Shown here in pieces: positions 17,035 to 58,200 of a stretch of 64,000 nucleotides of DNA. The stretch lies in the NCBI GenBank assembly GCA_964016885.1, contig OZ024743.1, forward strand, positions 330,212,001 through 330,276,000, given 5' to 3'. The position numbers and the translations under genes were made by a program. Numbering within the stretch: the first letter of the stretch is position 1; the number at the start of each line of letters is the position of its first letter. The notes under the pieces are model-generated. The model did no database searches. It was given only the letters and a program-made list of their open reading frames with translations, and was not told the origin of the DNA. This DNA is from Eledone cirrhosa (taxonomy: Eukaryota).

Positions 17035-18380
17035 GATTATGCATTTCTTATCTATACAGGGAGGTCTTTGAAAAGGGTATCACACCAAAATCAACATACT
17101 GATTGCGGATTTAGTACAGGTGATGAGAAACGTGTCCCGTATGTGCAACCCCGAAGAACTAATGAGACACATACAACACTTCATCCACCGTATGCAGTTC
17201 TCTGGTTACAATCAGAGAGATAAAATCAGTGTATATAGAGGAGCCAGAACCAAATGGGAAAAAATGGTAAATAATGATACAAATGGGACCTGCCCCTTGT
17301 ATAGGAGCAAATTTTGGAATAGAATAGAAAGAACTAGGAATAAGGTTAATAGAATAAACTCATGGTATGATAGCAATAAATACCAGAGTGTAATGTTCAT
17401 CGATACAACCCCTAGAGGTGAATTAGCTTACAAATTTAGAAGGGCCCTAGATAAACATAAACTCAATATTAAGATAGTAGAAAGACCAGGTACCTCCATA
17501 AAAAACACTTATTAGCAAGACATACCCTTTTCAAAGACCTCCCTGTATAGATAAGAAATGTATAATCTGTAAATTAAGCCCCCATATTAACTGTAAAACT
17601 AGAAATGTAGTATATAGCATAAGATGTACTGAAGGACAATGTAGAGATAAAAATATAGTGTACATAGGTGAGACAGCTCGTAGTATAGGGGAACGGATAA
17701 ATGAACACTGGCGAGACTTTCAAGATAGTAAAGAATCATCTGTACTCTACCAACATGCTAAAATAGAACATAAGGGTAAATTAGAGAACATAGAAATAAA
17801 AATAGAATCTACACACAGAAAAGACGCAATGTTTAGACAAATCACAGAGGCAATAAACATAAATAAATTCCAACCAAAATTAAATCGAAAATATGAATGG
17901 AATAGCAACATCACAACTTATAATTAACGACAAAATGAAAACACACACGCACATAGAACAAACAACCAACCAGTAACATGTAAATAAACAAATAAATAAA
18001 CGAATATAAATAAACACACACAGACACCCGGATGTAACACATGCGCAAACTAAGCACACAACACATAGAAAAACAAGATGGCGTAGGACAGAACAAATAG
18101 AGGCACAAAACAAAGAAAAGAATCCCCAGTCACTGAAGAGGTCACATAATGTGTGACGAAAGAACTTTGAGAATATATGAACAACCGCCCGGTTGTGGAA
18201 CCAACCAACCAACCGGAAATTCATAAATTTTTAAATTTATAATTTAATTTATAATAAACTGGAGTGAAAGTAGCTGGTGCGTGTGTTTCTTATTGGCAAC
18301 ATGACCCTCCCAAAGTATAACAATGTCGGTTTCAACACACGTTTTCAGATAAAGAATCTTTGCTAATCAAATTCAGAAAC
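17035..18380 (+). mobile_element. Penelope-like element 3' fragment (RT C-terminus, GIY-YIG endonuclease, pLTR region)
   Basis: C-x2-C...VVYSIRC...VYIGETARSIGERINEH...E...LN GIY-YIG signature (17560-17927); short inverted segment at the 5' junction; hammerhead core at 18133. Confidence 0.88.
18130..18170 (+). ncRNA. Minimal hammerhead ribozyme motif in the Penelope 3'/pLTR region
   Basis: tca-CTGAAGA-g-GTCACA(taatg)TGTGAC-GAAA-gaactt-tga. Confidence 0.6.
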
Positions 18381-18444: not shown

Positions 18445-18644
18445 NNNNNNNNNNNNNNNNNNNNNNNNNNNNNNNNNNNNNNNNNNNNNNNNNNNNNNNN
18501 NNNNNNNNNNNNNNNNNNNNNNNNNNNNNNNNNNNNNNNNNNNNNNNNNNNNNNNNNNNNNNNNNNNNNNNNNNNNNNNNNNNNNNNNNNNNNNNNNNNN
18601 NNNNNNNNNNNNNNNNNNNNNNNNNNNNNNNNNNNNNNNNNNNN
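18445..18644. other. Assembly gap (200 N) flanked by (TA)n and (CA)n
   Basis: Run of N. Confidence 0.99.
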
Positions 18645-22349: not shown

Positions 22350-23992
22350 TGCAGTTATTAGATGCAAAATATTTGGAATGTTTTACATATTTTTACTGTT
22401 CCATTAATGGATTGTACTTGTTTCCTAACTAGTTGTGTTCTTTCTGTTCCTGTGAAGCTCAGCTTCTCAAGATTTGTATTGAGGCAGTTACTAACATATT
22501 CCAGTGCCCCAATAATCACAGGCATAAATCTGAAGGTGTAATCAGGGTAGAGTATCTGCATATTTCTCATCAGTTCTGCATAAATATTCTCCTTTTCACT
22601 AAACTTTGATATTATATTGGCATCTGCTGGGCAGCTAATTTCCACTACTGTGCATGCTTTCTTCTCCCTGTCCCATATCATAATATCTGGTCTGTTATGC
22701 CTGCATTTTATTTGGGTTTTTACTGGAACATTCCACCAGTACTCTTTCATATTATGTACATGGATGTCTTCCACATTGCTGTAGATTTTAATCTGTTTAT
22801 TATCGGGGCTATCTTTTTTACGAACTGCATTGTACAGTGTTTTGGCCACTACATCATGCCTCATAGGTAGATAGTACCGCCATGACATCTTTGGACAGCT
22901 GCTGATGACATGGGTGATATCCTCGATGTTAGTTCTGCAGAGTCTGCACTTGTTATCACATCTAGCTGTTTTTCCTGCATCCCTATCTCTTTTGTGAATC
23001 AGGTATTTCGTGTTAATCTCCTGTTCTTGGATTGCAAAAGCGTATCCTTCAAAGTGGGAGCCAATATATCGGTTGTTGGTCCAAGATAGACTACTTTCCT
23101 TATCTATATTACTCTCACTCTGGAGCTTCCTGGCAACATATCCATGCATGATTTTTTGCTGATAAGCATGCATTTTTTCATCCATGGATTCACTGCGAAA
23201 CTGCTGAGCGACTGAGGGTGTGAGTTTTGATTACCACACAGGGAATATCTCTCGAGGAGTTCCTTCCCAACTCTCATGATCTTATCTGTTTCATGTAGAT
23301 AGACTTGCTCGAGAAACGGGCTCCTACGCTTCGAGGTTCGTAGATGTTGTCGGAGAGATATGATGCGACATTCAAATGTTGTCTGGACTGATGTTAGGCC
23401 TCTCCCTCCCTGCTTACGTTTCAAGTAAAGGCGGTCTATGTCACTGTTGATGTGGAAGTTTCCGGTGTTGTTTAGTATTTTTCGAGTTCCAACATCAACA
23501 GCTCGGATTTCGTCTATCGTCCAATTGAGTATTCCAAACGTTGGTGTTAGGACAGGCACAGCAAACACATTGTGAGCCATTGTTTTGTTTTGTGCAGAGA
23601 GTTCCGATGACCAGATCTTTCTTAATCGGGTGTAGTATTCCTTGGTTACGCGTTCTTTATTACAGATGCCATTATAGGATGTGTTCTCATCTATCCCCAG
23701 GTATCTGTAGCAGTCCTCATCAGATATCGGTGAAACAGTTAGGCCATTGATGACAATGTTGCTAGATTGGGTTGTTGTTTTTCCCCGCTTTACAGTCATG
23801 TATGAGCATTTATCTTGGCCAAACTCCATTCCTATATCCTTTGAGAACGTTGTAACCAGGTCAATATTTTTCTTCATCCCATCCCTGTTCTTGGCATAGA
23901 GTTTCAGATTGTCCACAAAGAAATTATGGGTTAGGTTCGTATTTCTGTCCTCCTGTGAGCCAATGATGTATCCCTCACATTTCTTGAGCAGA
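22350..23992 (-). mobile_element. R4/Dong-clade-like non-LTR retrotransposon (RT plus restriction-like endonuclease), 5'-truncated
   Basis: THNFFVDNLKLY (xDDLKLY type), Y.YLG, CRLC...EDITHVISSC, RHD, RPD...VVEISCP...K..Y; flanked by (TACA)-type repeats. Confidence 0.88.
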
Positions 23993-29638: not shown

Positions 29639-30094
29639 CTATATTTATATACATATACATGTATATACATGTATATATATTTGTATATATACAAATATAT
29701 GTATATATATATATAGTTCTGATCTAGCTGTCGAAACGGCTGGAGCTCAGCCGTCGGGGTCCTGGCTATTTTCCTATTATCCACTTTACTACCGAAGTAT
29801 TGAGTACTCTGGTGCATTATGGTCCACCTGGTACCATACCACACCCTCTTTGTTTTTATGTATACATATCTATCTATCTATCTATCTATCTTGATAGAGT
29901 AAGACACGCTTCGCATCGGCTCCGCTATTCCATCGGGATTTACCCTTACTATTGTAAGTACCGGATAAATTTTTTAGTGCAACACATTTGGAACACTAAC
30001 CCCTGTTATTTAGGGAAACATTTTTGCATTTACCCCCTTTTTTAGGGGGTAAAATAAATATCTATTTTTGCCGAAAAATTTCTTTCTTGGCAGC

Positions 30095-31931
30095 ATGGCG
30101 GAAAAGATGGCAGACATGTCTGCCATTAGCTCTGCCACGCCCCCCAAGTCTGAAGAACAAAAAATAATTACAACAAAATTAGACATTGAAACAAACAAAC
30201 AAAATGAAAAAACAAATGTTAAGGAAAATGAGCAAACAGAAAACAAACAAACAGAAAATAATACAAATAACGACAGGGCAACTTTCGCCCAGAAAACAAA
30301 ACAATCCATTACATACACACCAATTGACCTAACTGCCGCCAGAGAAAAACTGGCCGAAGCAAAGAAACACATTGTTTTGGGGGAGAACGGAATGTTTTCC
30401 ATTAACTCCCCCCCAGAATTCAAGAAAGCCAGAGCAGAAAACACAGTTCTCTACAGAACTATACTGAACCAGACAAGAAAGCCAGCACAGCCCAGCCAAA
30501 TGGAAATAGAGTTAGTCCTAAAAGACTATATGAAGAATATTCTCTTCATACGAAAGGACCGACTCTATGGCAGCATTTCGGTCCTAACAAGAGACAAAGA
30601 AACGGCGGAGAAGCTTTCCCTAAGCCCACTCTCGTCGACAACATATAGCTTCTATCCCTCCTACATGGGTAGAAGAACACAGAGAGTAAAAGTAAAAACA
30701 ATGCTGCCCACAATGGACTTCTGGTGGGCTATTGCTGGCTTCATTGATATGGGCGAAGACACAATGCTGTCAATGGGGAAGGCAACTGGAGATGCGTTCC
30801 TGGGAATGGGGCTCGACATACTAGTCCAAATGAGGCCCGAAAGAATAGCACAAATCCCGGATCGCATCTGGCTAGATGACCTTACCCCAATAGACATAAT
30901 TGTAGAGGGGAGAAGACCAGCATGCTATTTATGCATGGAAAGGGGACACGTTAAGGCTAACTGCCCGAAACGTATCCCCCAAAAAGGACTATTGCCCACA
31001 CCCACCACAAACAGTACACCAACACCACCCACCTCCAAAAATACACTAATACCACGCACAGCAATCAAAATACAGACACCACCAACCACAAACACAACAC
31101 AAACATCACCACCACCAGCACCAAACACAAGCACAACACAAAAATCACCACCACCAACCACAACACAAACATCACCACCACCATCACCAACCACAAGCAC
31201 GACACAAACATTACCACCACCACCACAAAACCCATTCCAAACAAATAATAAAAAAAACAGTAACAAATCTACCCCTCCCGCAAAAAAACAACAACCACAC
31301 AACACATCCCTTCCACCTAGCGCTGAAGAGTTTCCCCCAACTTCTGAAGAAGAAGGAGGAGAAGCCTTCAGACAAGTTAAAAGAAAAAAAAGAAAACACA
31401 CACCCAGCACACCACAAATAACCCACACACAAACACCAACTCCAATCAAAAACACCCCACCCTCAACAAACAAAAATAAATCTGCGCCTCCCCTCTCCGA
31501 AACATTGACAGCATCACAAAAAAAGACGTTGCAATACACATATATAAATAAAGAAAACAAAAAACTGGTTAAATTAATAAACAATAACCCTATGGTGCAG
31601 ACCGAAGGGCCAAACTTTATCTCAACAGAGAACTTCACCCATTTAAAAATGATAAAGGTCCCTCTGGACCTTTATCGTTCCTTAAAAGAACAATTTAGAC
31701 GGGACGTGAGCCCCCCCCCCCTGTTTAAAACCGTTGAATCGCGTCCTCTTGAAAGATTTCCCCATAACCGCCCCTCTCCCTGACACAATTTCAAATACCC
31801 CAACCCCACCACACACGTGTACCCCCACACCACCACAAAACATCCCTCCACCCAACACACCTGATGCCATGGAAATTACGCAACCCGGAGAGGTAAGTGC
31901 TTTTCTTTCTTCACTTTCAACACCAAAATAG
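30095..31931 (+). CDS. Tx1 ORF1p (CX2CX4HX4C knuckle, Pro/Thr-rich region, KRKKRKH); probable 1-nt frameshift in the C run at ~31710
   Basis: CYLCMERGHVKANC; the C-terminus in frame 31734-31931 (NRVLLK...MEI.QP) aligns with ORF1 of copy 5. Confidence 0.85.
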
Positions 31932-31936
31932 ATCAA

Positions 31937-34900
31937 TTGAGAGTTGGCTGTTTGAACGCGCGTGGCCTGGGCTCAGCTTGGAAGCAAGCAAAGCTTCTAA
32001 GTGACCTCAGGTCACAAAGTATAGATGTGATGGTTGTTTGCGAGAGTCGGATCAGCAGCGTGAGACAGCTGGCGCCCGCCTTCGATGACTTTGAGATGCA
32101 CGCATCTCTCTGTCAACCCGGAGGCGGGGGGGGGGGGTTGCCGTACTGCTGGATAAACGTCTGACTCTCGACGTACAGATTGTTCACTCGGACCCGGGGG
32201 GTCGATTACTGGTGCTGGACGTCGGAGGCGGTGAAGGCGGGGCTTTCAGACTGGTCGGTCTTTATGCTCCCTTCGGGGCGGAAAGAGCCGACTTCTTCCA
32301 GCGTCTGGAGACTTTTCTAGGAACGTCGCGTTCCCTGCTTTTAGTGGGGGACTGGAATGGAATCCTAGATGCGCGTTGGGACTATGCAGGGGCATGTCCC
32401 GATAGAGGGGGGTGTAGCAGCCTCAAGGGGTTACTCGATCGATTCGACCTGGTCGATAGATTTCGACTAGATTGTCCAACTGCGCCAACCTGGACCTGGG
32501 CAAACCGCAGTGGACAATCTAGATCGTACCTAGATAGGTTTTTGGTTAGGAGTAAGGATAGGGACGTATTTAGTTGTCCAGAACTGATCATGGTTGGCTA
32601 TTCAGATCACAAATTAGTGACCTGCGTGGTCAACCTTGATAGAACGCATAGACAGGGTCCCGGTTACTGGAAGATGAACTTGTCCTTACCGACAAAGAAA
32701 GATTACAGAAACCGGATTAGTAGCTTAGTTAAGATGCGGTTGACGGGAGCGATCGTCAACAGTAGGTGGTGGATATCTCTAAAGAGAGAGATTAGAGTAA
32801 GTTCGATAGGTTACAGTAAGGAACTAGCGGCGAATAGAAATCGGAGGGAAAGGGAGTTAACAGATAAACTAGAAGAGGCGATTAGGAGCGGAGACGTAGC
32901 CAGAGTGTTAGCGACGAGAACGGCATTGAGCCAGTTCTTTGACGCGAAGCACGAAGGCTGCGTTGTCCGAAGTAAAATACGTGCTTTAGGAAACGAGGGG
33001 ACCAAAGCTGTTAGCTGGGCCCGCGTGACAGAAGCCAAGAGTGGGATTAAATCCACCATTCGGTCTTTGCGAGACCAGGATGGACGGGTGATCCTTGAAC
33101 CTGAGCGAATGTGCGAGACCTTTCAAAGGCACTTTGCTCGACTGTTCGGAGGTGGCGGGGGGCCGGACGGGGATGTGGACTTCGGTCCATACCTCGACGG
33201 TCTACCGCGTCTTTCGAGCGGCGAAGCGGAGTGCTGCGAAAGGCCAATCACAGCCACTGAAATCGGGGAAGCGCTCAGCCAATGCAGCAGACGCAAATCC
33301 CCGGGTCTCGATGGTCTACCATACGAACTTTATTTAGCTATGCCGGTCTTGTTCTCCGAACTCCTCGAGGCTGTCTATTGCAACTGGCAACAGAACGGGA
33401 GAATTCCCTGTTCTGTGACCAAGGGCGTGGTCACGCTAGTGAGGAAGGACGAGAGCAAGGGGGACGACTTAAGTAACTTTAGGCCCATAACTCTGCTGAA
33501 TGCAGAGTTACAGATTTTGGCCAAGGTGTTGGCGAAGAGGTTGGCGCTTGTGGTGGGTGGTTTGGTGGGAGACGCGCAGACATGCGCTATCCCGTCCAGG
33601 TCCATTCACGACAACCTCCACCTCATGCGATACATCATAGAGAGGGTTGGCTACGAACCCGGCTTTGGTGGGGCCCTGATCAACTTGGATCAATCTAAGG
33701 CGTTCGATAGGGTCGACCATGGTTACCTGGATGCGGTGCTAGCGGCGGCGGGCTTCGGACCCGTTTTCAGGGGCTGGATTTCTGCCACGCACAGTGGCAA
33801 CATCTACTCTAGGATTAAAGTAAACGGCTACCTCTCGGAGCCGTTTCAAATCACCCGATCCATCAGACAGGGGTGCCCCCTCTCCTCCCTTCTGTACGTA
33901 TTGACTCTCGAGCCACTGCTGCGGAAGTTGGAGTTGCTGCGGGGCATACCCCTGGAACCGGGATTGCACAAAGCGGTCTCGGCCTATGCCGACGACGTAA
34001 CAGTAATGGTGGCGGACGCCTCGGAAATCGGGGCGATCGCCACCCTACTGGAGGAATACGAAAGGCTGACGGGGGCTAAGCTGAACCAGGACAAGTCAGT
34101 CGGTTTGCAACTCGGAACGTGGAGGGGCAAACCGATGCCGTTAGACGGTGTCGTCGGGCGGTGGACGGAGGGCCCGGTGAAGCTGCTCGGGGTCTGGTTC
34201 GGACCGGACCTCCAGGTGGAGAAGAATTGGGGCGAGGTGACGAGCAGGGTGTTTGCGCTGACCCAGAAGTGGGCCAAGTGCAAACTATCACTGAAAGGTG
34301 GGGCGGAGGTGACGAACGCTTACATAGCGTCCGTCATCTACTACCGCCTGACCGTCGTGCCTTGCCCCAAGGAAAAGCTCACCATCATGGAACGCATGCT
34401 CTTCCAGTTCCTCTGGAAGAAGCGGCCTCCCATGGTGAGGAGATCCATCTGCTGCCAGCACCCTTCGAAAGGAGGGCTGGGTATGCCGTGGCTGTTGATG
34501 CGTAGGCACGCATTGAGGCTACGGCATCTACAGGTATTCCTCAACGGTCAGCCGGTGTGGGCCCCGTTTGTGAGGCGAGCCTTCCCACAGCTCGTCTCGC
34601 TCACCGAACTGCAATCCTGGGTGAAGCAAAGACCGAGAAAACTGGGCAACTGGCACACCGAGTGTGCCCAGGCGCTCACGGCTATCTGGCAAGCGGACCC
34701 GACTGTCAGTGGAGAATCCACCTCGACATTCTATAGAGGGTTGGTGGCTAGCAGGGGCGACGACACCCTTGGAGAGTCGCTAGGCATGGAGGAGGACGAA
34801 CTGGCCAGCCTGTTCGGTAGAACTTTCGGCCCGGGACCCATGGACAACTTCCAGAGGTCCCTAGCCTGGCAGTGTTACCGGGGGGCTCTGCCCGTTCGAG

Positions 34901-35367
34901 AAAAGCTCTACAGACACGGGCGCCCGGGCAGGGATCCCGCGAAAAAGATCTGTCCCAGATGCGTGCGCGACGAGGAAACCGTTGCGCATGCACTGGTACA
35001 CTGCCCGGGCGTTGCCGATCTGTGGGGCTACGTCGAACGACTGCTGTCGCGTGTGGCGCCGATTCGATTAACCGCCGAGTCTGTGGTGAACATCAAGCCA
35101 CCTCCTCCCTTCAGAAATGAAGCAGAGGCGGTCTTTCTGTGCGTAATAGCCATGATGAAAGAGGTTGTGTGGTGGACGCGCCTGAAAGGTCTGAGGTCGG
35201 GTGACTTTCTCTCCGGCCATCACCTGGTTTACTTCTTCCGATACCACTTCGGAAGAAGAATCAGGATGGAGAGAGAAGTGCTTGGTCCCAGACAGTTTTA
35301 TGAAAGGTGGGTGAAAGAAGCGAGAATGGCCCGTGTAAATGGGCCTTCTCTCTACATTGTTCTGTAG
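31937..35367 (+). CDS. Tx1 ORF2p (APE, RT, CCHC); single frameshift in the G run at ~32126-32137; canonical ATG missing
   Basis: Motifs CLNARGL, GDWN, SYLDR, SDH, QGCPLS, YADD and CPRC...HALVHC. Confidence 0.93.
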
Positions 35368-35597
35368 GTGAAGAAGTGAAGAGGAAAGGGGGAGCGCCTC
35401 CTCTCTGGGCTTCCCCCGCGAAAAGAGTTGCACACTTTTCGGGGGTATGTGCAATCCCCAACACGCCCCCTCCCTTTTGAGGACTTTTTATTGTTATATT
35501 ATTATTGTTATTCCTTTTTTCTTTACTCGATTTATGTAAACTCCCCACTGTGTAAATGTCCCCTTCTTTTGTGCCCTCGTGGCAAATAAATAGAAAT

Positions 35598-35679
<82 letters not shown>
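35598..35679. repeat. (TATC)n microsatellite joining Tx1 copies 4 and 5
   Basis: About 20 TATC units. Confidence 0.95.
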
Positions 35680-35890
35680 CTGGGATGGACACACGCGTAT
35701 AACTTGCTGAGTAAGTTCTGTTTAAATTTCTATAGAAATTCTTGTCTGATAACTTTAATTTTTGTACCATTTTGTAGAGGGACTGCCAGGTCAAACTTTG
35801 ATCTGGTCAGTCTCTCAAAATATTCTACGCCTTTAGGCGAAATAGTTAAAAAAAAAGTTTTTTCTTGTTGAAAAGTCAATATTTTTTTAA

Positions 35891-37677
35891 ATGGCCGAAG
35901 CTTCTTCACCAAAATTCGAAGGAGGAAAGGGGAAGATGAACTTACAGCTTCCCCCTGCCACTGTCACAGTAGCAGAGGTCAAGAAGATAGGTCAGCCAGA
36001 GGAAGAATTCTCTCCACCTGTTAACCGACAACTTGACGTTGCCATGGCAACAACCCAAAGAACCAGCAGCAACAGCAACAACAACAACAATGCGACGGAC
36101 GAAAACAACACCAATAACAATAACAATAACAACAACAAGACCAATAACGGTGACAACAACAACAATGATAACAACAACACCACCAACGACAACAACAACA
36201 CAAACAAACAAAATTTCTCCTTCGCCGAGACGACAAGGAAAACCCTCGACTATCTGCCAGTAGATATAACAAAAGCGAAGGAGCTACTGGCGGATGCGAA
36301 AAAATATATAGTGTACGGGGAAAATGGTTCATTCACATCCATTCCCCCCCGGAACTAAAAAGCCAGAGACTCCTAAACACGGTCATGTTTAGGACAATCT
36401 CGAACAAAAGTAAAAAACCAGCTCAACCATCACAGAGCGAGATAGAGCTGGTTTTAAAAGACGTCATGAAGGACATCACCTTCATTCAGAAGGATAGACT
36501 CTACGGGAGTCTATCCATTCTCGTGAAGGACAGGGACACAGCAGTGAAACTGTCCATCAAACCAATCACATCCACCGCATACACCTTCTACCCTACGTAC
36601 ATGGGTAGAAGAACACAAAAAATAAAAATCCACACCATCCTGCCGATTATGGACATATGGTGGGTTTTGACAGGTTTTCTGGACCTGGAGGATGACATGC
36701 TGGTGTCCATGGGAAAGGCATCGGGTGACGCGTTCAGTGGAACGAGCCTCGAACTTGTAGTTCAAATGAGGCCCGAAAGGATCGCCCAGATCCCTGAACG
36801 CGTCATACTGGATGATCTAACCTTCATCAACATTACCGTTGAGGGTAGACGGCCCTCGTGTTACCTCTGCGGAACCAGAGGTCACCTGAGGGCTGTCTGT
36901 CCCCAACTTAATAAGAAAACCCCAATCCTGCCTACACCACCAACAACTGCACAACCAACACAATTACCACAACTACCACTACAAAAACAACCACCACAGC
37001 TCAAACCAAAACAAAACAATGTCCAACCCATCCCCTCCACTCAAAAAACAAAAACAATTTCCAAAACACCCGTACCGCAAACACAACCCGAAAATATACC
37101 CCTCCCCTCCAACGCGGAAGATGACCCTAGTTCGTCGTCAGACGAGGAGGAGCACTTCCACACAATCAAAAGAAAAAAAAGAAAACACACCTCAGACACA
37201 CAAATGAAAAAAACCCCTCCCCAAAACATAACACTGACACCAACACAAAAGAGCTCACAACAGCAAACAAAAAACACCACACAAAAACAAAAACATGCAT
37301 ACACATACATAAATACAAGAAACAAAAAACTGTTAAACATTGTGTACAACAACAATCTAATAAAAACACAAGGGCCTAACTTCACCCAGGCAGGGGATTT
37401 CCCCCACCTCAAAATGATTAAGGCCCCACAGGACACCTATAAAACTTTAAAAAACAATTTTAAAGAGGACGTGGGTCCCCCCTGCGTCGGGCCCATTAAC
37501 CGCGTCCTCCTAAAAAACTATCCCACCCCCTCCCCAAACACCCTCACAACTCCAAGCTCCCCAACCACACAACACACTGATGCCCCCACACTTCCACAAA
37601 CCACCACCCCACCCAACAACCCATCCCCCACCCTAATGGAAATTGTGCAGCCCGATACCCGGGACGCAGAGAGGTAA
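35891..37677 (+). pseudogene. Tx1 ORF1 of copy 5 (one frameshift near 36350)
   Basis: Asn-rich N-terminus, CYLCGTRGHLRAVC knuckle; homologous to ORF1 of copy 4. Confidence 0.88.
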
Positions 37678-37701
37678 GTGCCTTTTCTCTTCACCACCAA
37701 C

Positions 37702-40127
37702 ATGGCTATGCTAAGAGTAGGCTGTTTAAATGCGCGTGGCCTGGGCTCAACTTGGAAGCAAGCAATGCTTCTAAATGACCTCAGGTCACAACGTATAGAT
37801 GTGATGGTTATTTGCGAGGCCCGGATCAGCAACGTGCGACAGCTGGCCCCCACCTTTGATGACTTTGAGATGCACGCATCTCTCTGTCAGCCCGGAGGTG
37901 GGGGTGGAGTTGTCATTCTGCTGCAAAAACATCTGGGTCTCGCAACACAGATGGTACATTTGGACCCGGAGGGTCGACTAGTGGTTCTGGACCTTGGCAG
38001 TGGTAAAGGCGGAGCGTTTAGGTTGGTAGCCGCCTACGGCCCTTTCGGGTCAATGCGGCCGGACTTCTTCCATCGTCTGGAGACTTTTCTAGGGACGTCC
38101 CGCTCCTTGCTATTAGTGGGGGACTGGAATGGTATCCTAGATGCACGCTGGGACTACGTAGGGGCCTGCCCCGATAGAGAGGGGTGTAATAGCCTCAAAG
38201 GGTTAATCGGTCGATTTGACCTGGCCGATAGATATCGACTAGATTTTCCGACTGCGCCAACCTGGACTTGGGCAAATCGTAGCGGATCATCTAGGTCGTA
38301 CCTAGATAGGTTCTTAGTTAGAATTAAGGATAAGGACTTTTTAAGTTGTCCAAAAATGCGCATGGTTGGCTATTCAGACCACAAATTAGTGACCTGCATG
38401 GTCAACCTTGACAGAACTCATAGACAGGGCCCCGGTTACTGGAAGCTCAACTTGTCCTTGCCGGCAAGTAGAGCCTACAGGAATCGGATTAGTACGTTAG
38501 TTAAGGAACGGTTGACTGGAGCGATCGTCAACAGCAGGTGGTGGGTATCTCTAAAGAGAGAGATTAGAGTAGTCTCGATAGAATTTAGTAAGGTTCTAGC
38601 TGCGGATAGGAATAGGAAGGAAAGGGAGCTAATAGATAGAGTAGAAGAGGCAATTAGAAGCGGCGACGTGGCCAGAGTGCTAGCGTCGAGAACGGCTTTG
38701 AGCCAGTTTTTCGACGCGAAGCACGAAGGCTGCGTTGTCCGAAGTAAAATACGTGCTCTAGGGAACGAGGGGACCAAAGCTGTTAGCTGGGCCCGCGTGA
38801 CAGAGGCCAACAGTGGAACTAAATCCACCATCCGGTCTTTGCGAGACCTGGATGGACGGGCGATTCTTGAGCCTAAGCAGATGTGTGAGGCCTTTCAAAG
38901 GCACTTTGCGTCGTCGGACGCTGGACGGAGGGCCCGGTGAAGTTGCTCGGGGTCTGGTTCGGACCGGACCTCCAGGTGGAGCAAAACTGGGCGGAGGTTA
39001 CGAACAGGGTGTTTGCACTGACCCAAAAGTGGGCCAGTTGCAAACTATCCCTGAAAGGCCGGGCGGAGGTGGCGAACACCTACATAGCGTCCGTCATCTA
39101 CTACCGCCTGACCGTAGTGCCCTGCCCAAGGGAAACCCTCACCAAGATGGAGCGCGCGCTCTTCCAATTCCTTTGGAAGAGGCGGGCTCCTATGGTGAGG
39201 AGATCCATCTGCTGTCAACACCCTTCGAAAGGAGGGCTGGGGATGCCGTGGCTAATGATGCGTAAACACGCATTAAGGCTACGGCACCTCTACGTATTCC
39301 TCACCGGACAACCGGTGTGGGCCTCGTTTGTGAGACGAACCTTTCCCAGACTCGTCTCACTCACCGAGCTGCAATCCTGGGTCAAGCAAAGACCGAGAAA
39401 ACTGGGCGCCTGGCACACTGAGTGTGCCCAGGCGCTCACCGCCCTCTGGCAGGCGGATCCGGTTATCAGTGGAGACTCCACCGCAACATTCTATAGAGGG
39501 CTGGTACGCAGCAGGTGCGACGACGCCCTCGGAGAAGCCCTAGACATGGAGGAGGACGAACTGGCCAGCCTGTTCGGTAGGACATTCAGCCCGGGACCTA
39601 TGGACAACTTCCAGAAGTCCCTGGCCTGGCAGTGCTACCGAGGGGCTTTACCCGTTCGAGAAAGGCTCTACAGACACGGGCGCCCGGGTAGGGACCCCGC
39701 CAAAAAGATCTGTCCCAGATGCGTGTGCGACGAGGAAACCGTTGCACACGCATTAGTACACTGCTCGGGCGTAGCCGATCTGTGGGGCTATGTCGAACAA
39801 CTGCTGTCAAGGGTGGGACCGATCCGGTTGACCACCGAGTCTATTGTAATGATCAAGCCGCCTCCCCCCTTCAAAGATGAAGCAGAGGCGGTGTTTCTGT
39901 GCGTAATAGCCATGGCGAAAGAGGTTGTATGGTGGACGCGTCTGAAAGGACTGAGGTCGGGCACCTTTCTCTCTGGCCAACAACTGGTCCGTTTCTTCCG
40001 ATATCATTTCGGAAGAAGGATCAGGATGGAGAGAGAGGTGCTGCACCCCAGCCGTTTCTATGAAAGATGGGTGAAAGTGGCGAGAATGGCCCGTGTGAAT
40101 GGGCCTTCACTCTACATCAGACTATAG
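37702..40127 (+). pseudogene. Tx1 ORF2 of copy 5 lacking ~1 kb that covers the RT core
   Basis: FQRHFA is followed directly by VVGRWTEGPVKLLG (frame-shifted); no YADD. Confidence 0.92.
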
Positions 40128-40418
40128 GTGAGGAAGATGAAAGACCAAGGGAGCACCCCTTCTCTGTGCTCCTGAGGAGAAGGGTTGCACACTTTTTTCG
40201 GGGGTGTGTGCGACCCCCCAAGGCGCCTCCTCTCTATTGAGGATTTTGTTAAAAATTTTATTTTTTGTTATATCTTATTTTATTTTTATATTTTGTTATT
40301 GCCTCCTCCTTATTGAGGACGCCTTTTTGTGTAAACTCCCCCCTTTGTACTTGTCCCACTTTTGATGCCCTAGTGGCAAATAAAAGAAATATATCTATCT
40401 ATCTATCTTTCTATCTAT

Positions 40419-40473
<55 letters not shown>

Positions 40474-40474
40474 G

Positions 40475-40510
<36 letters not shown>

Positions 40511-40917: not shown

Positions 40918-41935
40918 TCATCATCATCATCATCATCATCAGGTTTAGCGTCCGTGTTCCACGCTTGCATGGGTTTGGACGGGGGTTTTCCCACTTGAGG
41001 CAAGAGTGGTTGTCTTGCTCGCATAGGACTGTCTGGCGGGTTTTCTACAGTTGGATGCCCTTCCTAACACCAACCACATTTACAGTGTGGGGCTGGGAGG
41101 TTTTTACCGTGTTGCCTACACGGCCACATTACAGCGTGGACTGTCTGGCTGGTTTTCTACAGCTGGATGCCCTTCCTAACACCAACCACATTTACAGTGT
41201 GGGGCTGGGAGGTTTTTACCGTGTTGCCTACACGGCCACATTTACAGCGTGGACTGTGTGTTTTTTGTCGTGACACCTACACGATCTCATTTGTTTCGGC
41301 CTGGATGTTGTGGGACCAACATAACTTTGCATTGAAAGGGGCGGTGTGGGTGGGGTGGAGGTGGTGGGACGGGGGTGTGTTTTGATAGAGGTGCCTACTG
41401 ACTGTAGTAGGTTTTTACTTTGTATTTAGGTAAGGCGGGTCTTCTCTATTACTGAGTACCGCCAAAGGTCTCGGTCCAGTGACATTGTCTTGGAGAGGTG
41501 TAAGCGTGTGAGGTCGGAATTTATCAGCTCGTCCCATGTTTTTCTGGGTCTGCCTACTCCGTGGCTACCGTCTATCTTTATTGCCCTGCACTTTGTTATA
41601 CAGCTGTCGTCTTTCATGCGCATCACGTGACCGTACCAACGTAGCCTTCTCTCGAGTAAACAACATCTGATCCCTCTTATTTCTAATTTTTTCCTTAGTT
41701 CGTTTATGCTTTGCCGTTCACGTATATTACTATTGCACATCCAGCGGAGCATGCAAGCTTCGTTCCTCTCTAGTCTGCGTATATCCTCCGCACACAATGC
41801 CCAGGTCTCACTGCCATGCAGCATTGCTGTTCGTATGCAGGCATCGTATAACCTGCCTTTCATTTTTAGGGAGAACCCTCTAGCGGCTAATAGTGGTATA
41901 AGCTCTCTGAACTTTTTCCATCCAGTTCTGACTCT
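40918..41935 (-). mobile_element. RTE-clade LINE 3' fragment with a (GAT)n tail
   Basis: KGRLYDACIRTAMLHGSETW...RRLRWYGHVMRM...GRPRKTW; (CAT)n at 40918-40940 on the plus strand; ~110-bp tandem duplication in the 3' UTR (41026-41256). Confidence 0.88.
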
Positions 41936-46239: not shown

Positions 46240-49200
46240 AGACCAAATATACGGGGTCAAGAGCTGATGTTAATCCAATACAATCAACCACACCATGCAT
46301 ACGTGGTCAAGACCAAATGTTAGTCCAATATACCCAACTACACCATACACAGGACGTCAAGACCGGATGTTAGTCCAATATACTCAAATACACCATACAT
46401 AGATGGTCAAAACCTTATGTTAGTCCAATATACCCAACCACACCAAAGATAGGTAGTCGGGACATTATGTTAGTCAAATATACTCAACTACACCATACAA
46501 AGGTGTTCTGGACCTTATGTTAGTCCAATATACCCAACCACACCATACACGGGTGGACGGGACCTTATGTTAGTCCAATATACCCAACCGCACCATACAC
46601 GGGTGATCGGGACCTTATGTTAGTCCAATATACCCAACTACACCATACATTGGTGGTCGGGACCTTATGTTAGCCTAATATACCCAACTACACCATACAT
46701 TGGTGGTCGGGACCTTATGTTAGCCTAATATACCCAACTACACCATACACGGGTGGTCGGGACCTTATGTTAGTCCAATATACCCAACCACACCATACAC
46801 AGGTAGTCGGGACCTTATGTTAGTCCAATATACCCAACTACAACATACACGGGTGGTCGGGACATTATGTTAGTCCAATATACCCAACCACACCATACAC
46901 AGGTGGTCGGGATCTTATGTTAGTCCAATATAACCAACCACACCATACACAGGTGGTCGGGACCTTATGTTAGTCCAATATACCCAACCACACTATACAC
47001 GGGTGGTCGGGACCTTATGTTAGTCCAATATACCAAAGCACACCATACACAGGTGGTCGGGACCTTATGTTAGTCCAATATACCCAACCACACCATACAC
47101 GGGTGGTCGGAACCTTATGTTAGTCCAGTATACACAACCACACCATACACGGGTGGTCGGGACCTTATGTTAGTCCAATATACTCAACCACACCATACAC
47201 AGGTGGTCGGGATCTTATGTTAGTACAATATACTCAACCACACCATACACAGGTGGTCAGGACCTTATGTTAGTCCAATATACCCAACCACACCATACAC
47301 GGGTGGTCGGGACCTTATGTTAGTCCAATATACTCAACCACACCATGCAGAGGTTGTCGGGACCTTATGTTAGTCTAATATACCCAACCACACCATACAC
47401 AGGTGGTCAGGACCTTATGTTAGTCCAATATACCCAACCACACCATACAAGGGTGGTCGGGACCTTATGTTAGTCAAATATACTCAACTACACCATACAC
47501 AGGTGGTCGGGACCCTATGTTAGTCCAATATACGCAACTACACCATACAAGGGTGGTCTGGACCTTATGTTAGTCCAATATACTCAACCACACCATACAC
47601 AGGTGGTTGGTACTTTATGTTAGTCCAATATACTCAAACACACCATACACAGGTGGTCGGTACCTTATGTTAGTCCAATATACCCAACTACACCATACAC
47701 AGGTAGTCGGGACCTTATGTTAGTCCAATATACCCAACCACACCATAAACGGGTGGTCGGGACCTTATGTTAGTCCAATATACCCAACCACACCATACAC
47801 GGGTGGTCGGGACCTTATGTTAGTCCAATATACCCAACCACACCATACACGGGTGGTCGGGACCTTATGTTAGTCCAATATACGCAACCACACCATACAC
47901 AGGTGGTCAAGACCTTATGTTAGTCCAATATAACCAACCACACCATACACAGGTGGTCGGGACCTTATGTTAGTCCAATATACCCAACTACACCATACAC
48001 AGGTGGTCATGACCTTATGTTAGTCTAATATAACCAACCACACCATACACAGGTGGTCGGAACCTTATGTTAGTCCAATATACCCAACCACACCATACAC
48101 AGGTAGTCGGGACCTTATGTTTGTCCAATATACCCAACCACAACATACAAGGGTGGTCGGGACACTATTTTAGTCCAATATACTCAACCACACCATACAA
48201 GGGTGGTCGGGACCTTATGTTAGTCCAATATACTCAACCACACCATACACAGGTAGTCTGGACCTTATGTTAGTCCAATATACCCAACCACACCATACAC
48301 AGGAAGTCGGGACCTTATGTTAGTCAAATATACCCAACCACACCATACACAGGTAGTCGGGACCTTATGTTAGTCCAATATACCCAACTACACCATACAC
48401 AGGTGGTCGGGACCTTATGTTAGTCCAATATACTCAACCACATCATACACAGGTAGTAGGGACCTTATGTTAGTCCAATATACCCAACCACACCATACAC
48501 AGGTAGTCGGGAACTTATGTTAGTCCAATATTCCCAACTACACCATACACAGGTATTCGGGACCTTATGTTAGTGAAATATACCCAACCACAACATACAC
48601 CAGTGGTCGGGACCTTATGTTAGTCCAATATACCCAACCACACCATACACAGGTAGTCGGGACCTTATGCTAGTCCAATATACCCAACCACACCATACAC
48701 AGGTGGTCGGGACCTTATGTTAGTCCAATATACTCAACCACATCATACACAAGTGGTCGGGACCTTATGTTAGTCCAATATACCCAACCACACCATACAC
48801 AGGTGGTCGGGACCTTATGTTAGTCCAATATACTCAACCACACCATACACAGGTGGTCGGGACCTTATGTTAGTCCAATATACTCAAGCACACCATACAC
48901 AGGTGGTCGGGACCTTATGTTAGTCCAATATACCCAACAACACCATACATAGGTGGTCGGGACCTTATGTTAGACTAATATACCCAACTACACCATACAC
49001 AGGTGGTCGGGACCTAATGTTAGTCCAATATACCAAAACACACCACACACGGGTGGTCGGGACCTTATGTTAGTCCAATATACTTAACCACGCCATACAC
49101 GTGTGGTCGAGACCTTATGTTAGTCCAATATACCCAACCACACCATACACGGGTGGTCGGGACCTAATGTTAGTCCAATATTCCCAACTACACTATACAC

Positions 49201-52200
49201 AGGTGGTCAGGACCTTATGTTAGTCCAATATACTCAACCACACCATACACGGGTGGTCGGTCCCTTATGTTTGTCCAATATACCCAACCACACCATACAC
49301 AGGTGGTCGGTACCTTATGTTAGTCCAATATACCCAACTACACCATACACAGATGGTCAGGACCTTATGTTAGTCCAATATACCCAACCACACCATACAC
49401 AGGTGGTCGGGACCTTATGTTAGTCCAATATACCCAATTACAACATACACAGGTGGTCAAGACCTTATGTTAGCCCAATATACCCAACTACGCCATACAC
49501 GGGTGGTCGGGACCTTATGTTAGTCCAATATATCCAACTACACCTTGCACGGGTGGTCGGGACCTTATGTTAGTCCAATATACCCAACCACACCATACAC
49601 GAGTGGTCGGGACCTTATGTTAGTCCAATATACCCAACCACACATACATAGGTGGTCAAGACCTTATGTTAGTCCAATATACCCAACCACACCATACACG
49701 GGTGGTCAGGACCTTATGTTAGTCCAGTATACCCAACTACACCATACACAGGTAGTCGGGACCTTATGGTAGTCCAATATACCCAACCACACCATACACG
49801 GGTGGTCGGGACCTTATGTTAGTCCAATATACCCAACCACACCATACACGGGTGGTCAAGATCTTATGTTAGTCCAATATACCCAACCACACATACATAG
49901 GTGGTCAAGACCTTATGTTAGTCCAATATACCCAACTACACCATACACAGGTGGTCATGACCTTATGTTAGTCCAATATAACCAACCACACCAGACACAG
50001 GTGGTCGGTACCTTATGTTAGTCAAATATAACCAACCACACTATACACGGGTGGTCGGGACCTTATGTTAGTCCAATATACCCGACTACACCATACACAG
50101 GTGGTAAAGACCTTATGTTAGTCCAATATACCCAACCACACCATACACGGGTTGTCGGGACCTTATGTTAGTCTAATATACCCAACCACACCATACACAG
50201 GTGGTCGGGACCTTATGTTAGTCCAATATACCCAACCACACCATACATGGGTGGTCGGGACCTTATGTTAGTCCTATATACCCAACTACACCATACACGG
50301 GTGGTCAAGACCTTATGTTAGTCCAATATACCCAACCACACCATACACGGGTGGTCGGGACCTTATGTTAGTCCAATATACCCAACCACACCATACACAG
50401 GTGGTCAGGACCTTATGTTAGTCCAATATACCCAACCACACCATACAAGGGTGGTCGGGACCTTATGTTAGTCAAATATACTCAACTACACCATACACAG
50501 GTGGTCGGGACCTTATGTTAGTCCAATATACTCAACCAGACCATACAAGGGTGGTCGGGACCCTATGTTAGTCCAATATACCCAACTACACCATACAAGG
50601 GTGGTCGGGACCTTATGTTAGTCCAATATACTCAACCACACCATACACAGGTGGTCGGGAGTTTATGTTAGTCCAATATACTCAACCACACCATACACAG
50701 GTGGTCGGGACCTTATGTTAGTCCAATATACCCAACTACACCATACACAGGTAGTCGGGACCTTATGTTAGTCCAATATACCCAACCACACCATACACGG
50801 GTGGTCGGGACCTTATGTTAGTCCAATATACCCAACCACACCATACACGGGTGGTCAAGACCTTATGTTAGTCCAATATAACCAACCACACCATAGACAG
50901 GTGGTCGGGACCTTATGTTAGTCCAATATACCCAACTACACCATACACAGGTGGTCATGACATTATGTTAGTCCAAAATAACCAACCACACCATACACAG
51001 GTGGTCGGGACCTTATGTTAGTCCAATATACTCAACCACACCATACACAGGTAGTCTGGACCTTATGTTAGACAATATACCCAACCACACCATACACGGG
51101 TGGTCGGGACCTAATGTTAGTCCAATATACCCAACTACACCATACACAGGTGGTCAGGACCTTATGTTAGTCCAATATACTCAACCACACCATACACGGG
51201 TGGTCGGTCCCTTATGTTTGTCCAATATACCCAACCACACCATACACATGTGGTCGGGACCTTATGTTAGTCCAATATACCCAACTACACCATACACGGG
51301 TGGTCGGGACCTAATGTTAGTCCAATATACCCAACTACACCATACACAGGTGGTCAGGACCTTATGTTAGTCCAATATACTCAACCACACCATACACGGG
51401 TGGGCGGTCCCTTATGTTTGTCCAATATACCCAACCACACCATACACAGGTGGTCGGGACCTTATGTTAGTCCAATATACCCAACTACACCATACAGAGG
51501 TGGTCAGGACCTTATGTTAGTCCAATATACCCAACCACACCATACACAGGTGGTCGGGACCTTATGTTAGTCCAATATACCCAATTACACCATACACAGG
51601 TGGTCAAGACCTTATGTTAGTCCAATATACCCAACTACGCCATACACGGGTGGTCGGGACCTTATGTTAGTCCAATATATCCAACTACACCATGCACGGG
51701 AGGTCGGAACCTTCTTTTAGCACAATATACCCAACCACACCATACACGAGTGGTCGGGACCTTATGTTAGTCCAATATACCCAACCACACATACATAGGT
51801 GGTCAAGACTTTATGTTAGTCCAATATACCCAACCACACCATACACGGGTGGTCGGGACCTTATGTTAGTCCAATATACCCAACTACACCATACACAGGT
51901 AGTCAGGACCTTATGTTAGTCCAATATACCCAACCACACCATACACGGGTGGTCGGGACCTTATGTTAGTCCAATATACCCAACCACACCATACACGGTT
52001 GCTCAAGACCTTATGTTAGTCCAATATACCCAACTACACCATACACAGGTAGTCTGGACCTTATGTTAGTCCAATATACCCAACCACACCATACACGGGT
52101 GGTCGGGACCTTATGTTAGTCCAATATACCCAACCACACCATACACGGGTGGTCAACACCTTATGTTAGTCCAATATAACCAACCACACCATACACAGGT

Positions 52201-55200
52201 GGTCGGGACCTTATGTTAGTCCAATATACCCAACTACACCATACACAGGTGGTCATGACCTTATGTTAGTCCAAAATAACCAACCACACCATACACAGGT
52301 GGTCGGGACCTTATGTTAGTCCTATATACCCAACCACACCATACAAGGGTGGTCGGGACACTATGTTAGTCCAATATACTCAACCACACCATACAAGGGT
52401 GGTCGGGACCTTATGTTAGTCCAATATACTCAACCACACCATACACAGGTAGTCTGGACCTTATGTTAGTCCAATATACCCAACCACACCATACACAGGT
52501 AGTCGGGACCTTATGTTAGTCCAAATACCCAACTAAACCATACACAGGTGGTCGGGATCTTATGTTAGTCCAATATACCCAACCACACCATACACAGGTA
52601 GTCGGGACCTTATGCTAGTCCAATATACCCAACCACACCATACACAGGTGGTCGGGACCTTATGTTAGTCCAATATTCTCAACCACATTATACACAGGTA
52701 GTAGGGACCTTATGTTAGTCCAATATACCCAACCACACCATACCCAGGTAGTCGGGAACTTATGTTAGTCCAATATTCCCAACTACACCATACACAGGTA
52801 GTCGGGACCTTATGTTAGTCCAATATACCCAACCACACCATACACGGGTGGTCAAGACCTTATGTTAGTCCAATATAACCAACCACACCATAGACAGGTG
52901 GTCGGGACCTTATGTTAGTCCAATATACCCAACTACACCATACACAGGTGGTCATGACATTATGTTAGTCCAAAATAACCAACCACACCATACACAGGTG
53001 GTCGGGACCTTATGTTAGTCCAATATACTCAACCACACCATACACAGGTAGTCTGGACCTTATGTTAGTCCAATATACCCAACCACACCATACACGGGTG
53101 GTCGGGACCTAATGTTAGTCCAATATACCCAACTACACCATACACAGGTGGTCAGGACCTTATGTTAGTCCAATATACTCAACCACACCATACACGGGTG
53201 GTCGGTCCCTTATGTTTGTCCAATATACCCAACCACACCATACACATGTGGTCGGGACCTTATGTTAGTCCAATATACCCAACTACACCATACACGGGTG
53301 GTCGGGACCTAATGTTAGTCCAATATACCCAACTACACCATACACAGGTGGTCAGGACCTTATGTTAGTCCAATATACTCAACCACACCATACACGGGTG
53401 GGCGGTCCCTTATGTTTGTCCAATATACCCAACCACACCATACACAGGTGGTCGGAACCTTATGTTAGTCCAATATACCCAACTACACCATACAGAGGTG
53501 GTCAGGACCTTATGTTAGTCCAATATACCCAACCACACCATACACAGGTGGTCGGGACCTTATGTTAGTCCAATATACCCAATTACACCATACACAGGTG
53601 GTCAAGACCTTATGTTAGTCCAATATACCCAACTAAGCCATACACGGGTGGTCGGGACCTTATGTTAGTCCAATATATCCAACTACACCATGCACGGGAG
53701 GTCGGAACCTTCTTTTAGCACAATATACCCAACCACACCATACACGAGTGGTCGGGACCTTATGTTAGTCCAATATACCCAACCACACATACATAGGTGG
53801 TCAAGACTTTATGTTAGTCCAATATACCCAACCACACCATACACGGGTGGTCGGGACCTTATGTTAGTCCAATATACCCAACTACACCATACACAGGTAG
53901 TCAGGACCTTATGTTAGTCCAATATACCCAACCACACCATACACGGGTGGTCGGGACCTTATGTTAGTCCAATATACCCAACCACACCATACACGGTTGC
54001 TCAAGACCTTATGTTAGTCCAATATACCCAACTACACCATACACAGGTAGTCTGGACCTTATGTTAGTCCAATATACCCAACCACACCATACACGGGTGG
54101 TCGGGACCTTATGTTAGTCCAATATACCCAACCACACCATACACGGGTGGTCAACACCTTATGTTAGTCCAATATAACCAACCACACCATACACAGGTGG
54201 TCGGGACCTTATGTTAGTCCAATATACCCAACTACACCATACACAGGTGGTCATGACCTTATGTTAGTCCAAAATAACCAACCACACCATACACAGGTGG
54301 TCGGGACCTTATGTTAGTCCTATATACCCAACCACACCATACAAGGGTGGTCGGGACACTATGTTAGTCCAATATACTCAACCACACCATACAAGGGTGG
54401 TCGGGACCTTATGTTAGTCCAATATACTCAACCACACCATACACAGGTAGTCTGGACCTTATGTTAGTCCAATATACCCAACCACACCATACACAGGTAG
54501 TCGGGACCTTATGTTAGTCCAAATACCCAACTAAACCATACACAGGTGGTCGGGATCTTATGTTAGTCCAATATACCCAACCACACCATACACAGGTAGT
54601 CGGGACCTTATGCTAGTCCAATATACCCAACCACACCATACACAGGTGGTCGGGACCTTATGTTAGTCCAATATTCTCAACCACATTATACACAGGTAGT
54701 CGGGACCTTATGTTAGTGCAATATACCCAACCACAACATACAAAAGTGGTCGGGACCTTATGTTAGTCCAATATACCCAACCACACCATACACAGGTGGT
54801 CGGGACATTATGTTAGTCCAATATACTCAACCACAACATACACAGGTGGTCGGGACCTTATGTTAGTCCAATATACTCAAGCACACCATACACAGGTGGT
54901 CGGTACCTTATGTTAGTCCAATATACTCAACCACGCCATACACGTGTGGTCGGGACCTTATGTTAGTCCAATATACCCAACCACACCATACACGGGTGGT
55001 CGGGACCTAATGTTAGTCCAATATACCCAACTACACCATACACAGGTGGTCAGGACCTTATGTTAGTCCAATATACTCAACCACACCATACACAGGTGGT
55101 CGGTCCCTTATGTTTGTCCAATATACCCAACCACACCATACACAGGTGGTCAGGACCTTATGTTAGTCCAATATACCCAACTACACCATACACAGGTGGT

Positions 55201-58200
55201 CAGGACCTTATGTTAGTCCAATATACCCAACCACACCATACACAGGTGGTCGGGACCTTATGTTAGTCCAATATACCCAATTACACCATACACAGGTGGT
55301 CAAGACCTTATGTTAGTCCAATATACCCAACTACGCCATACACGGGTGGTCGGGACCTTATGTTAGTCCAATATATCCAACTACACCATGCACGGGTGGT
55401 CGGGACCTTATTTTAGCCCAATATACCCAACCACACCATACACGAGTGGTCGGGACCTTATATTAGTCCAATATACCCAACCACACATACATAGGGGGTC
55501 AAGACTTTATGTTAGTCCAATAAACCCAACCACACCATACACGGGTGGTCGGGATCTTATGTTAGTCCAATATACCCAACTACACCATACAGAGGTAGTC
55601 GGGACCTTATGTTAGTCCAATATACCCAACCACACCATACACGGGTGGTCGGGACCTTATGTTAGTTCAATATACCCAACCACACCATACACGGGTGGTC
55701 AAGACCTTATGTTAGTCCAATATACCCAACTACACCATACACAGGTGGTCAGGACCTTATGTTAGTCCAATATACCCAACCACACCATACACAGGTGGTC
55801 GGGACCTTATGTTAGTCCAATATACCCAATTACACCATACACAGGTGGTCAAGACCTTATGTTAGTCCAATATACCCAACTACGCCATACACGGGTGGTC
55901 GGGACCTTATGTTAGTCCAATATATCCAACTACACCATGCACGGGTGGTTGGGACCTTATTTTAGCCCAATATACCCAACAACACCATACACGAGTGGTC
56001 GGGACCTTATGTTAGTCCAATATACCCAACCACACATACATAGGTGGTCAAGACCTTATGTTAGTCCAATATACCCAACCACACCATACACGGGTGGTCG
56101 GGACCTTATGTTAGTCCAATATACCCAACTACACCATACACAGGTAGTCGGGACCTTATGTTAGTCCAAGATACCCAACCACACCAAACACGGGTGGTCG
56201 GGACCTTATGTTAGTCCAATATACCCAACCTAACCTTACACGGGTGGTCAAGACCTTATGTTAGTCCAATATACCCAACTACACCATACACAGGTGGTCA
56301 TGACCTTATGTTAGTCCAATATAACCAACCACACCAGACAGAGGTGGTCGGTACCTTATGTTAGTCAAATATAACCAACCACACTATACACGGGTGGTCG
56401 GGACCTTAAGTTAGTCCAATATACCCGACTACACCATACACAGGTGGTAAAGACCTTATGTTAGTCCAATATACCCAACCACACCATACACGGGTGGTCG
56501 GGACCTTATGTTAGTCCAATATACACAACCAAACCATACATGGGTGGTCGGGACATTATGTTAATCCTATATACCCAACTACACCATACACGGGTGGTCA
56601 AGACCTTATGTTAGTCCAATATAACCACCCACACCATACACGGGTGGTCGGGACCTTATGTTAGTCCAATATACCCAACCACACCATACACAGGTGGTCA
56701 GGACCTTATGTTAGTCCAATATACCCAACCAAACCATAGACGGGTGGTCGGGACCTTATGTTAGTCCTATATATCCAACTACACCATACACGGGTGGTCG
56801 GGACCTTATGTTAGTCCAATATACTCAACCACACCATACAAGGGTGGTCGGGACCCTATGTTAGTCCAATATACCCAACCACACCATACACGGGTGGTCG
56901 GGACCTTATGTTAGTCCAATATACCCAACCACACCATACACGGGTGGTCGGGACCTTATGTTAGTCCAATATACCCAACTACACCATACACAGGTGGTCG
57001 CGACCTTATGTTAGTCCAATATACCCAACTACACCATACACAGGTGGTCATGACCTTATGTTAGTCCAATATAACCAACCACACCATACACAGGTGGTCG
57101 GGACCTTATGTTAGTCCAATATACCCAACCACACCATACAAGGGTGGTCGGGACACTATGTTAGTCCAATATACTCAACCACACCATACAAGGGTGGTCG
57201 GGACCTTATGCTAGTCCAATATACCCAACCACACCATACACAGGTAGTCGGGACCTTATGTTAGTCCAATATACCCAACTACACCATACACATGTGGTCG
57301 GGACCTTATGTTACTCCAATATACCCAACTACACCATACACAGGTGGTCGGGACCTTATGCTAGTCCAATATACCCAACCACACCATACACAGGTAGTCG
57401 GGACCTTATGCTAGTCCAATATACCCAACCACACCATACACGGGTGGTCGGGACCTTATGTTAGTCCAATATACCCAACCAGACCATACAAGGGTGGTCG
57501 GGACCTTATGTTAGTCAAATATACTCAACTACACCATACACAGGTGGTCGGGACCTTATGTTTGTCCAATATAATCAACCACACCATACAAGGGTGGTCG
57601 GGACCCTATGTTAGTCCAATATACCCAACTACACCATACACAGGTGGTCGCGACCTTATGTTAGTCCAATATACCCAACTAAACCATACAAGGGTGGTCG
57701 GGACCTTATGTTAGTCCAATATACTCAACCACACCATACACAGGTGGTCGGGACTTTATGTTAGTCCAATATGCTCAACCACACCATACACAGGTGGTCG
57801 GGACATTATGTTAGTCCAATATACCCAACTACACCATACACAGGTAGTCGGCACCTTATGTTAGTCCAATATACCCAACCACACCATACACGGGTGGTCG
57901 GGACCTTATGTTAGTCCAATATACCCAACCACACCATACACGGGTGGTCGGGACCTTATGTTAGTCCAATATACCCAACAACACCATACACAGGTGGTCG
58001 GGACCTTATGTTAGTACAATATACCCAACTACACCATACACAGGTGGTCATGACCTTATGTTAGTCCAATATAACCAACCACACCATACACAGGTGGTCG
58101 GGACCTTATGTTAGTCCAATATACCCACCCACACCATACAAGGGTGGTCGGGACACTATGTTAGTCCAATATACTCAACCACACCATACAAGGGTGGTCG

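Follow-up and report, generated by a model that had tools for sequence, protein, structure and literature searches.

The window analysed here, 64,000 nt of the 3.0-Gb genome of Eledone cirrhosa (GCA_964016885.1, contig OZ024743.1, positions 330,212,001–330,276,000 of the forward strand), contains five copies of a LINE that we classify as an L1/Tx1-type non-LTR retrotransposon on the basis of the domains of its ORF2, its separate ORF1, its many 5′-truncated copies and its lack of LTRs. Copy 5 (35682–40391, plus strand) is nearly full length and shares ~99% identity with the intact copies L031–L038. Its ORF1 (35891–37677) is frameshifted and encodes a zinc-knuckle protein whose zf-CCHC match lies below the Pfam cut-off; in intact relatives ORF1 is 593–595 aa long, again with a weak zinc-knuckle match. 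Its ORF2 (37702–40127; APE endonuclease, RT and zf-RVT; 1145 aa when intact) lacks ~1012 nt of the RT near 38908, a deletion that we rejected as an intron, its ends not being GT-AG. In the intact copy L038, Pfam finds the APE endonuclease, the RT and a C-terminal zinc finger in ORF2, with zf-RVT just under the cut-off there and at the cut-off in another Pfam comparison. The element ends with an AATAAA (40379–40384) and abuts a (TATC)n microsatellite (40392–40510) that is its likely target: (TATC)n is found at the 3′ end of all nine fetched copies of the copy-5 subfamily (c5), and TATC-like repeats precede the 5′ end in the five that have one, such that the microsatellite target preference typical of the Tx1 clade is seen in these copies. 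Named Tx1 references are absent among the close protein matches; protein relatives at 39–41% identity exist without DNA context, and no distant relative with its surrounding DNA was found in metagenome or viral contigs.

This is a young family of many copies: exact unspliced junctions at the ORF1 end number 1440 in c5 and the sister subfamilies D and E taken together, exact c5 3′ ends number 2782, and other subfamilies contribute 7987 ORF2 starts; by eye, ~60 of the first 100 matches listed in that last set belong to the very abundant family A. Copies 4 and 5 lie head to tail (29867–40510) with only a (TATC)n run (35599–35679) between them, and similar stacking occurs at L031, L034, L037 and L040. 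Elsewhere in the window, a 50-bp satellite (46267–63995; ~355 copies, 90% matches) reaches the window end, a 200-N assembly gap occupies 18445–18644, and ORFs at 17123–17515, 22358–23877 and 41426–41863 resemble other retroelement fragments by eye.

The end of ORF1 in copy 5 coincides with a candidate splice donor, GAG/GTAAGT (37671–37679, plus strand, phase 2; 8/9 consensus positions), so placed that an intron would begin at 37674, one base before the ORF1 stop TAA (37675–37677). Such overlap follows from the donor consensus, whose letters themselves read TAA in phase 2 and predispose to TAA or TGA in phase 1. At the other end of ORF2, the stop TAG (40125–40127) would supply the acceptor AG and is followed by G and a TGA (40129–40131) with which the ORF1 stop would be rebuilt. 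Copy 4 pairs a phase-0 donor (31890–31898, plus strand) with an ORF2 stop TAG and a phase-0 TGA three codons on (35365–35379), and copy 2, on the minus strand, pairs a phase-1 donor (9936–9944) with an ORF2 stop TAG and a phase-1 TAA (6433–6443). An earlier, sequence-only reading of this DNA had joined these three donors to their acceptors by hand, and its splices are exact: copy 5 ends in E-R-stop either way, copy 2 in E-G-K-stop unspliced and E-G-R-stop spliced, and spliced copy 4 in E-V-K-K-stop. The donor phases that it gave (2, 1 and 0 for copies 5, 2 and 4) are confirmed by the open ORF1 frames of other copies. The near in-frame stop that it saw after the acceptor for each of these three donors is present, but the two copies that it left out have none. 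In copy 1 (phase-2 donor, 1498–1506, plus strand) the ORF2 stop (4947–4949) is a TAA, which offers no AG, and splicing to the next one would leave a tail of 65–70 residues in most copies of its family; in copy 3 (phase-2 donor, 12631–12639, plus strand) no close stop lies beyond the TAG at 15881–15883, and the spliced tail is 88 residues. In copies 2 and 4, moreover, a stop is reached sooner in a phase other than that of the donor.

That reading had also held that ORF1p would be essentially the same from both RNAs. This is borne out in the fitting phase-1 and phase-2 families, where 0–2 residues change, but in the two phase-0 families 9–12 residues differ; the copy 4 proteins are similar rather than essentially the same because unspliced copy 4 continues for 12 residues beyond the donor. 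Immunity to nonsense-mediated decay, which it also proposed, adds nothing to explain the design: under the 50–55 nt rule of mammalian junction-dependent decay (the host here is a cephalopod), a stop just upstream of the donor would escape equally. The property visible to selection would be an ORF1p tail that is short and harmless.

To set these junctions in a wider frame, copies with both ends were sorted into 15 subfamilies, whose ORF2 identity is 67–96% among those with an intact representative; E2, G2 and I rest on one or two copies each. Left out of the count are copy 3, which fails (L218 stands for its family), the chimera L114 and all copies that do not have both ends; C3 is represented by its modal copy, L227. 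Donor phases were read from open ORF1 frames, except that those of D, E2, G2, C3 and older A came from homology or long open runs, since no copy of these is open from knuckle to donor. Taking the AG of the ORF2 stop as acceptor, and a stop within three residues in the donor's phase as a fit, we find that 9/15 subfamilies fit in their own phase, compared with 5/30 in the other phases (phases shuffled among subfamilies, p = 0.006); collapsed to 10 lineages, seven fit (p = 0.020), and with a four-residue cut the values are p = 0.019 for subfamilies and 0.032 for lineages. Expressed as residues to the first stop for donor phases 0/1/2, the tails of the fitting subfamilies are 15/37/1 in c5 and 3/53/1 in F (own phase 2), 3/37/1 in c4 and 2/4/14 in C3 (own phase 0), and 43/1/33 in H, 69/2/1 in C, 81/2/62 in C2, 6/1/65 in G and 6/1/54 in G2 (own phase 1). 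Those of the failing ones, all with own phase 2, are 15/37/79 in D, 34/26/71 in E, 27/4/96 in E2, 6/1/43 in older A and 12/2/99 in I, and A has no AG at its ORF2 stop. The sequence-only reading had staked its case on the spliced frame reaching a stop sooner than the other two across many subfamilies, and the comparison of first in-frame stops leaves it standing, since the donor's own phase is enriched among both subfamilies and lineages; the pattern is not universal.

Could such agreement be due to chance, the three favourable copies having simply been chosen from five? The two omitted copies do fail, and among the 14 subfamilies that have the AG the own phase is strictly nearest in seven and farthest in five. 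The excess nevertheless extends over 15 subfamilies, six of which (H, C2, C3, older A, I for its 3′ end, and G) played no part in the earlier reading, and the background is ~3%, as other AGs of the 3′ UTR fit in only 9/282 cases (13 subfamilies). For family H, the stop-AG acceptor predicted phase 1 beforehand, and phase 1 was found in 8/8 copies. We consider chance a very unlikely explanation.

The distribution of phases along midpoint-rooted ORF2 trees offers a further view of how the two ends of ORF2 have changed together. Parsimony makes phase 1 the likely ancestral state. In the shift from phase 1 to phase 2, GT TGA in H corresponds to G TGA or G TAA in c5, c4 and F, a one-base indel after the acceptor, and in the shift from phase 1 to phase 0 in C3, where a base was lost from ORF1 upstream of the donor, one extra base moves the stop from +6 (C and C2) to +7, where it lies in 9/9 fetched copies having a 3′ end; at least 40 identical C3 junctions exist. 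In its shift to phase 0, c4 made use of a stop that its sister F, in phase 2, already had. By contrast, the move of A and I to phase 2 has no counterpart at the stop AG, and D, E and E2 have lost the stop after the TAG. The tree contains only about seven independent events, and both indels are also compatible with the RNA pairing described below. The proposal that the two ends co-evolved is supported to a moderate degree and suggests a real signal, in that all seven phase-0 and phase-1 subfamilies fit and two shifts are matched by indels, but it is no rule, as 6/8 phase-2 subfamilies, young intact ones among them, fail with the stop-AG acceptor.

The two putative splice sites differ in quality, the donor being strong and the acceptor middling. 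The donor agrees with 8–9 of nine consensus positions in 14/15 representatives across all three phases, which gives the first gene a conserved U1-type donor at its end, as in copia and EVD (see below), and at most three other GT sites per element equal it (none of 260 in an intact copy of the copy-5 type). The pyrimidine count before the stop AG is in the top 2–25% of AGs, or about the top third for family I. Each of the six subfamilies that fail carries another AG, 7 or 13 nt farther upstream, inside an AGN codon of ORF2 (in copy 5 the corresponding CAG, with its AG at 40119–40120, 7 nt before the end of the stop, is an alternative acceptor that places ORF1 in frame with the last ORF2 codons), and joining a phase-2 donor to this AG, a post hoc choice, leads in frame to ORF2's own stop after 2–4 residues. 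If either AG is allowed, 15/15 subfamilies stop within four residues compared with 11/30 in the other phases (p = 0.001, again post hoc and with an added degree of freedom); the prompt stop after the junction that marks copia and EVD is present in 9/15 with the stop AG, and in all 15 only with this second acceptor. A single rule of the first AG after the pyrimidine tract was rejected: it fits C2, C3 and I, mispredicts H, where the stop AG is right, and misses G2. It counts against the upstream AG that GAG is a poor splice acceptor. For copy 4 we likewise rejected a mini-intron of 39 nt with the AG before ORF2 as its acceptor, which would give the ORF1 frame with an early stop and no ORF1–ORF2 fusion.

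The two ends of ORF2 are also complementary to each other. Folding predicts a long-range zipper between the stretch from the donor to 30 nt past the ORF2 ATG and the region around the ORF2 stop in 15/15 subfamilies (−44 to −64 kcal/mol; z = −2.9 to −7.6 against dinucleotide shuffles), with no better window among ~130 tested per family (53 for I). In copy 5, the predicted 5′ arm (37669–37731, plus strand) comprises the donor, the spacer and the ORF2 start, and the 3′ arm (40095–40167) includes the stretch that would pair with the donor. Across subfamilies the zipper covers 5–8 of the nine donor positions and pairs 2–3 of the three start-codon bases, and A and G carry a near-exact donor complement in the 3′ UTR; the cognate arm is best in 6 of 12 cases, such that family-specific pairing is only partial. 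Covering the ORF1 stop, the ORF2 start and the ORF2 stop, the zipper might itself be the functional unit, acting in translation or reverse transcription with the donor and the matched stops as passengers, a reading favoured by the consistency of the predicted pairing. Any complementary sequence would serve such a unit, however, yet the donor keeps its U1 consensus in three phases over the whole range of ORF2 divergence, and we regard this explanation as unlikely.

A more serious possibility, though still a doubtful one, is that the donor is only a docking site for U1, for example against premature polyadenylation, that ORF2 is no intron, that the matched stops reflect one phase-1 ancestor and luck, and that the ‘acceptor’ is simply an ORF2 stop within a zipper arm. 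The contrast between donor and acceptor would be expected under this reading, as would the lack of spliced retrocopies (below) and the six failing subfamilies; both the pyrimidine tract and the upstream AG are accounted for by the zipper, because they pair with the first codons of ORF2, and a role of this kind for U1 is described at the EVD donor in the available text of PMC5580714. What docking does not predict is a stop that follows the phase through two indels, nor the fit of H. Nor does the zipper appear to explain the matched stops: a null model holding its energy within 2 kcal/mol, loose and treating families as independent, expects 2.3 fits of 14 compared with nine seen, the spacer of c5, c4 and F offers the A of their stop no complementary base, and loss of the stop in D and E has added to the pairing.

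Genomic copies with the intron exactly removed would be the most direct trace of splicing, and pattern searches for exact or near-exact spliced retrocopies of c5, D, E, A, c4, H, C, C2, C3, F and G returned no true case, the five hits being a slip, three small deletions and a point change; denominators were counted for c5, D and E, as the unspliced junctions and exact c5 3′ ends given above. As an RNA without ORF2 needs mobilization in trans, this blank weighs only against abundant germ-line splicing. Contigs of four sequencing runs, none of them on record as RNA, were compared with the intact c5 copy L038, and the donor–acceptor joint was not among the 15 of 84 joints listed, which carries no weight either way.

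The donor conserved in three phases, the excess of phase-matched stops and the complementary ends are established. Beyond them, the post-acceptor stop likely follows the donor phase because transcripts spliced to remove ORF2 must still end ORF1 promptly, and we hypothesize, with confidence that is evenly poised, that some transcripts do have ORF2 spliced out, the zipper keeping them a minority form. During transcription of ORF2, U1 would occupy the donor, and the 3′ arm, once made, would zip onto the donor, the spacer and the ORF2 start; most RNA would stay full length because the zipped arm would hide both the donor and the acceptor region. RNA spliced before zipping would become a ~2.3-kb ORF1-only message, yielding more ORF1p relative to ORF2p, and in phase-2 lineages without a stop after the TAG, the AG 7 or 13 nt upstream would let ORF1 borrow the stop of ORF2. 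The fullest version of this scheme, which we hold more tentatively, makes the whole RT gene a switchable intron in which the anti-donor zipper chooses between full-length and ORF1-only RNA, with stops tracked through repeated frameshifts and borrowed from ORF2 in some lineages.

The closest known system would seem to be the subgenomic splicing of copia and EVD. The Drosophila LTR element copia makes a spliced Gag RNA, a proven case, from which most of pol is removed and in which Gag ends in the last exon; the proposed removal of ORF2 resembles this removal of pol, although the octopus elements are non-LTR and their splicing is put forward by inference. An ORF1-only form of an L1-type element exists as HAL1, which is genomic, whereas no ORF1-only genomic copy was found here at the tested junctions. 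The Arabidopsis Ty1/Copia element EVD makes a spliced GAG-only message (shGAG) with a stop just after the junction, and U1 also blocks premature termination there (PMC5580714, in the text available). EVD resembles our LINEs in that its structural gene has a conserved U1-type donor close to its end, but it is an LTR element with one ORF, a short intron and early polyadenylation, in which splicing is proven; these LINEs have two ORFs, the putative intron is all of ORF2 (3.47 kb), a stop is present even in the unspliced RNA, and we infer the splicing from sequence. Splice sites within a LINE are functional in the human L1 SpIREs and putative here. According to the accessible part of PMC5860796, SpIREs splice within the 5′ UTR or between the 5′ UTR and ORF1, keep ORF2 in cis, and leave retrocopies (131 of 6,609 full-length L1s, ~2%), of which none were found for these LINEs. 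With the microsatellite-targeting Tx1-clade LINEs Kibi and Koshi our elements share an ORF2 with APE, RT and zinc finger, a zinc-knuckle ORF1 and insertion into microsatellites, but the target here is (TATC)n, and the available text on Kibi and Koshi (PMC4494074) mentions neither a splice nor a pairing of ends. No description of a LINE with ORF2 as an intron was found in the literature searched, which covers few subscription journals and Repbase reports.

How LINEs obtain abundant ORF1p and scarce ORF2p from one RNA is an open question, and for human L1 an unknown AUG-independent initiation has been invoked (PMC5009743, as far as its available text goes). If the scheme is true, a LINE that removes ORF2 by splicing would have reached the copia solution in a non-LTR element, and the range of donor phases and acceptors found among its subfamilies, with compensatory changes in the zipper, would provide exact, testable junctions in thousands of young copies.

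Several subfamilies show further peculiarities of their own. In c4, an ATA that overlaps the ORF1 stop TAG replaces the ORF2 ATG in 11/11 copies (31928–31936 in the window, and L151–L160), and ORF2 is still open in the 10 fetched copies despite this; non-AUG initiation of the c4 ORF2 is likely. L114 is a chimera with a C-type 5′ end and an A-type 3′ end, and copy 3 (12560–15883) and its older family (L212, L213 and L218) combine A-type ORF1 ends with G-type or G2-type 3′ ends, so that the subfamilies appear to recombine. The C3 copies (L226–L235) are identical at the ORF1/ORF2 junction, yet the long ORF1 frame is open to the donor in 0/10, with a longest run of 324 codons, and in the five copies inspected ORF1 breaks in low-complexity runs.
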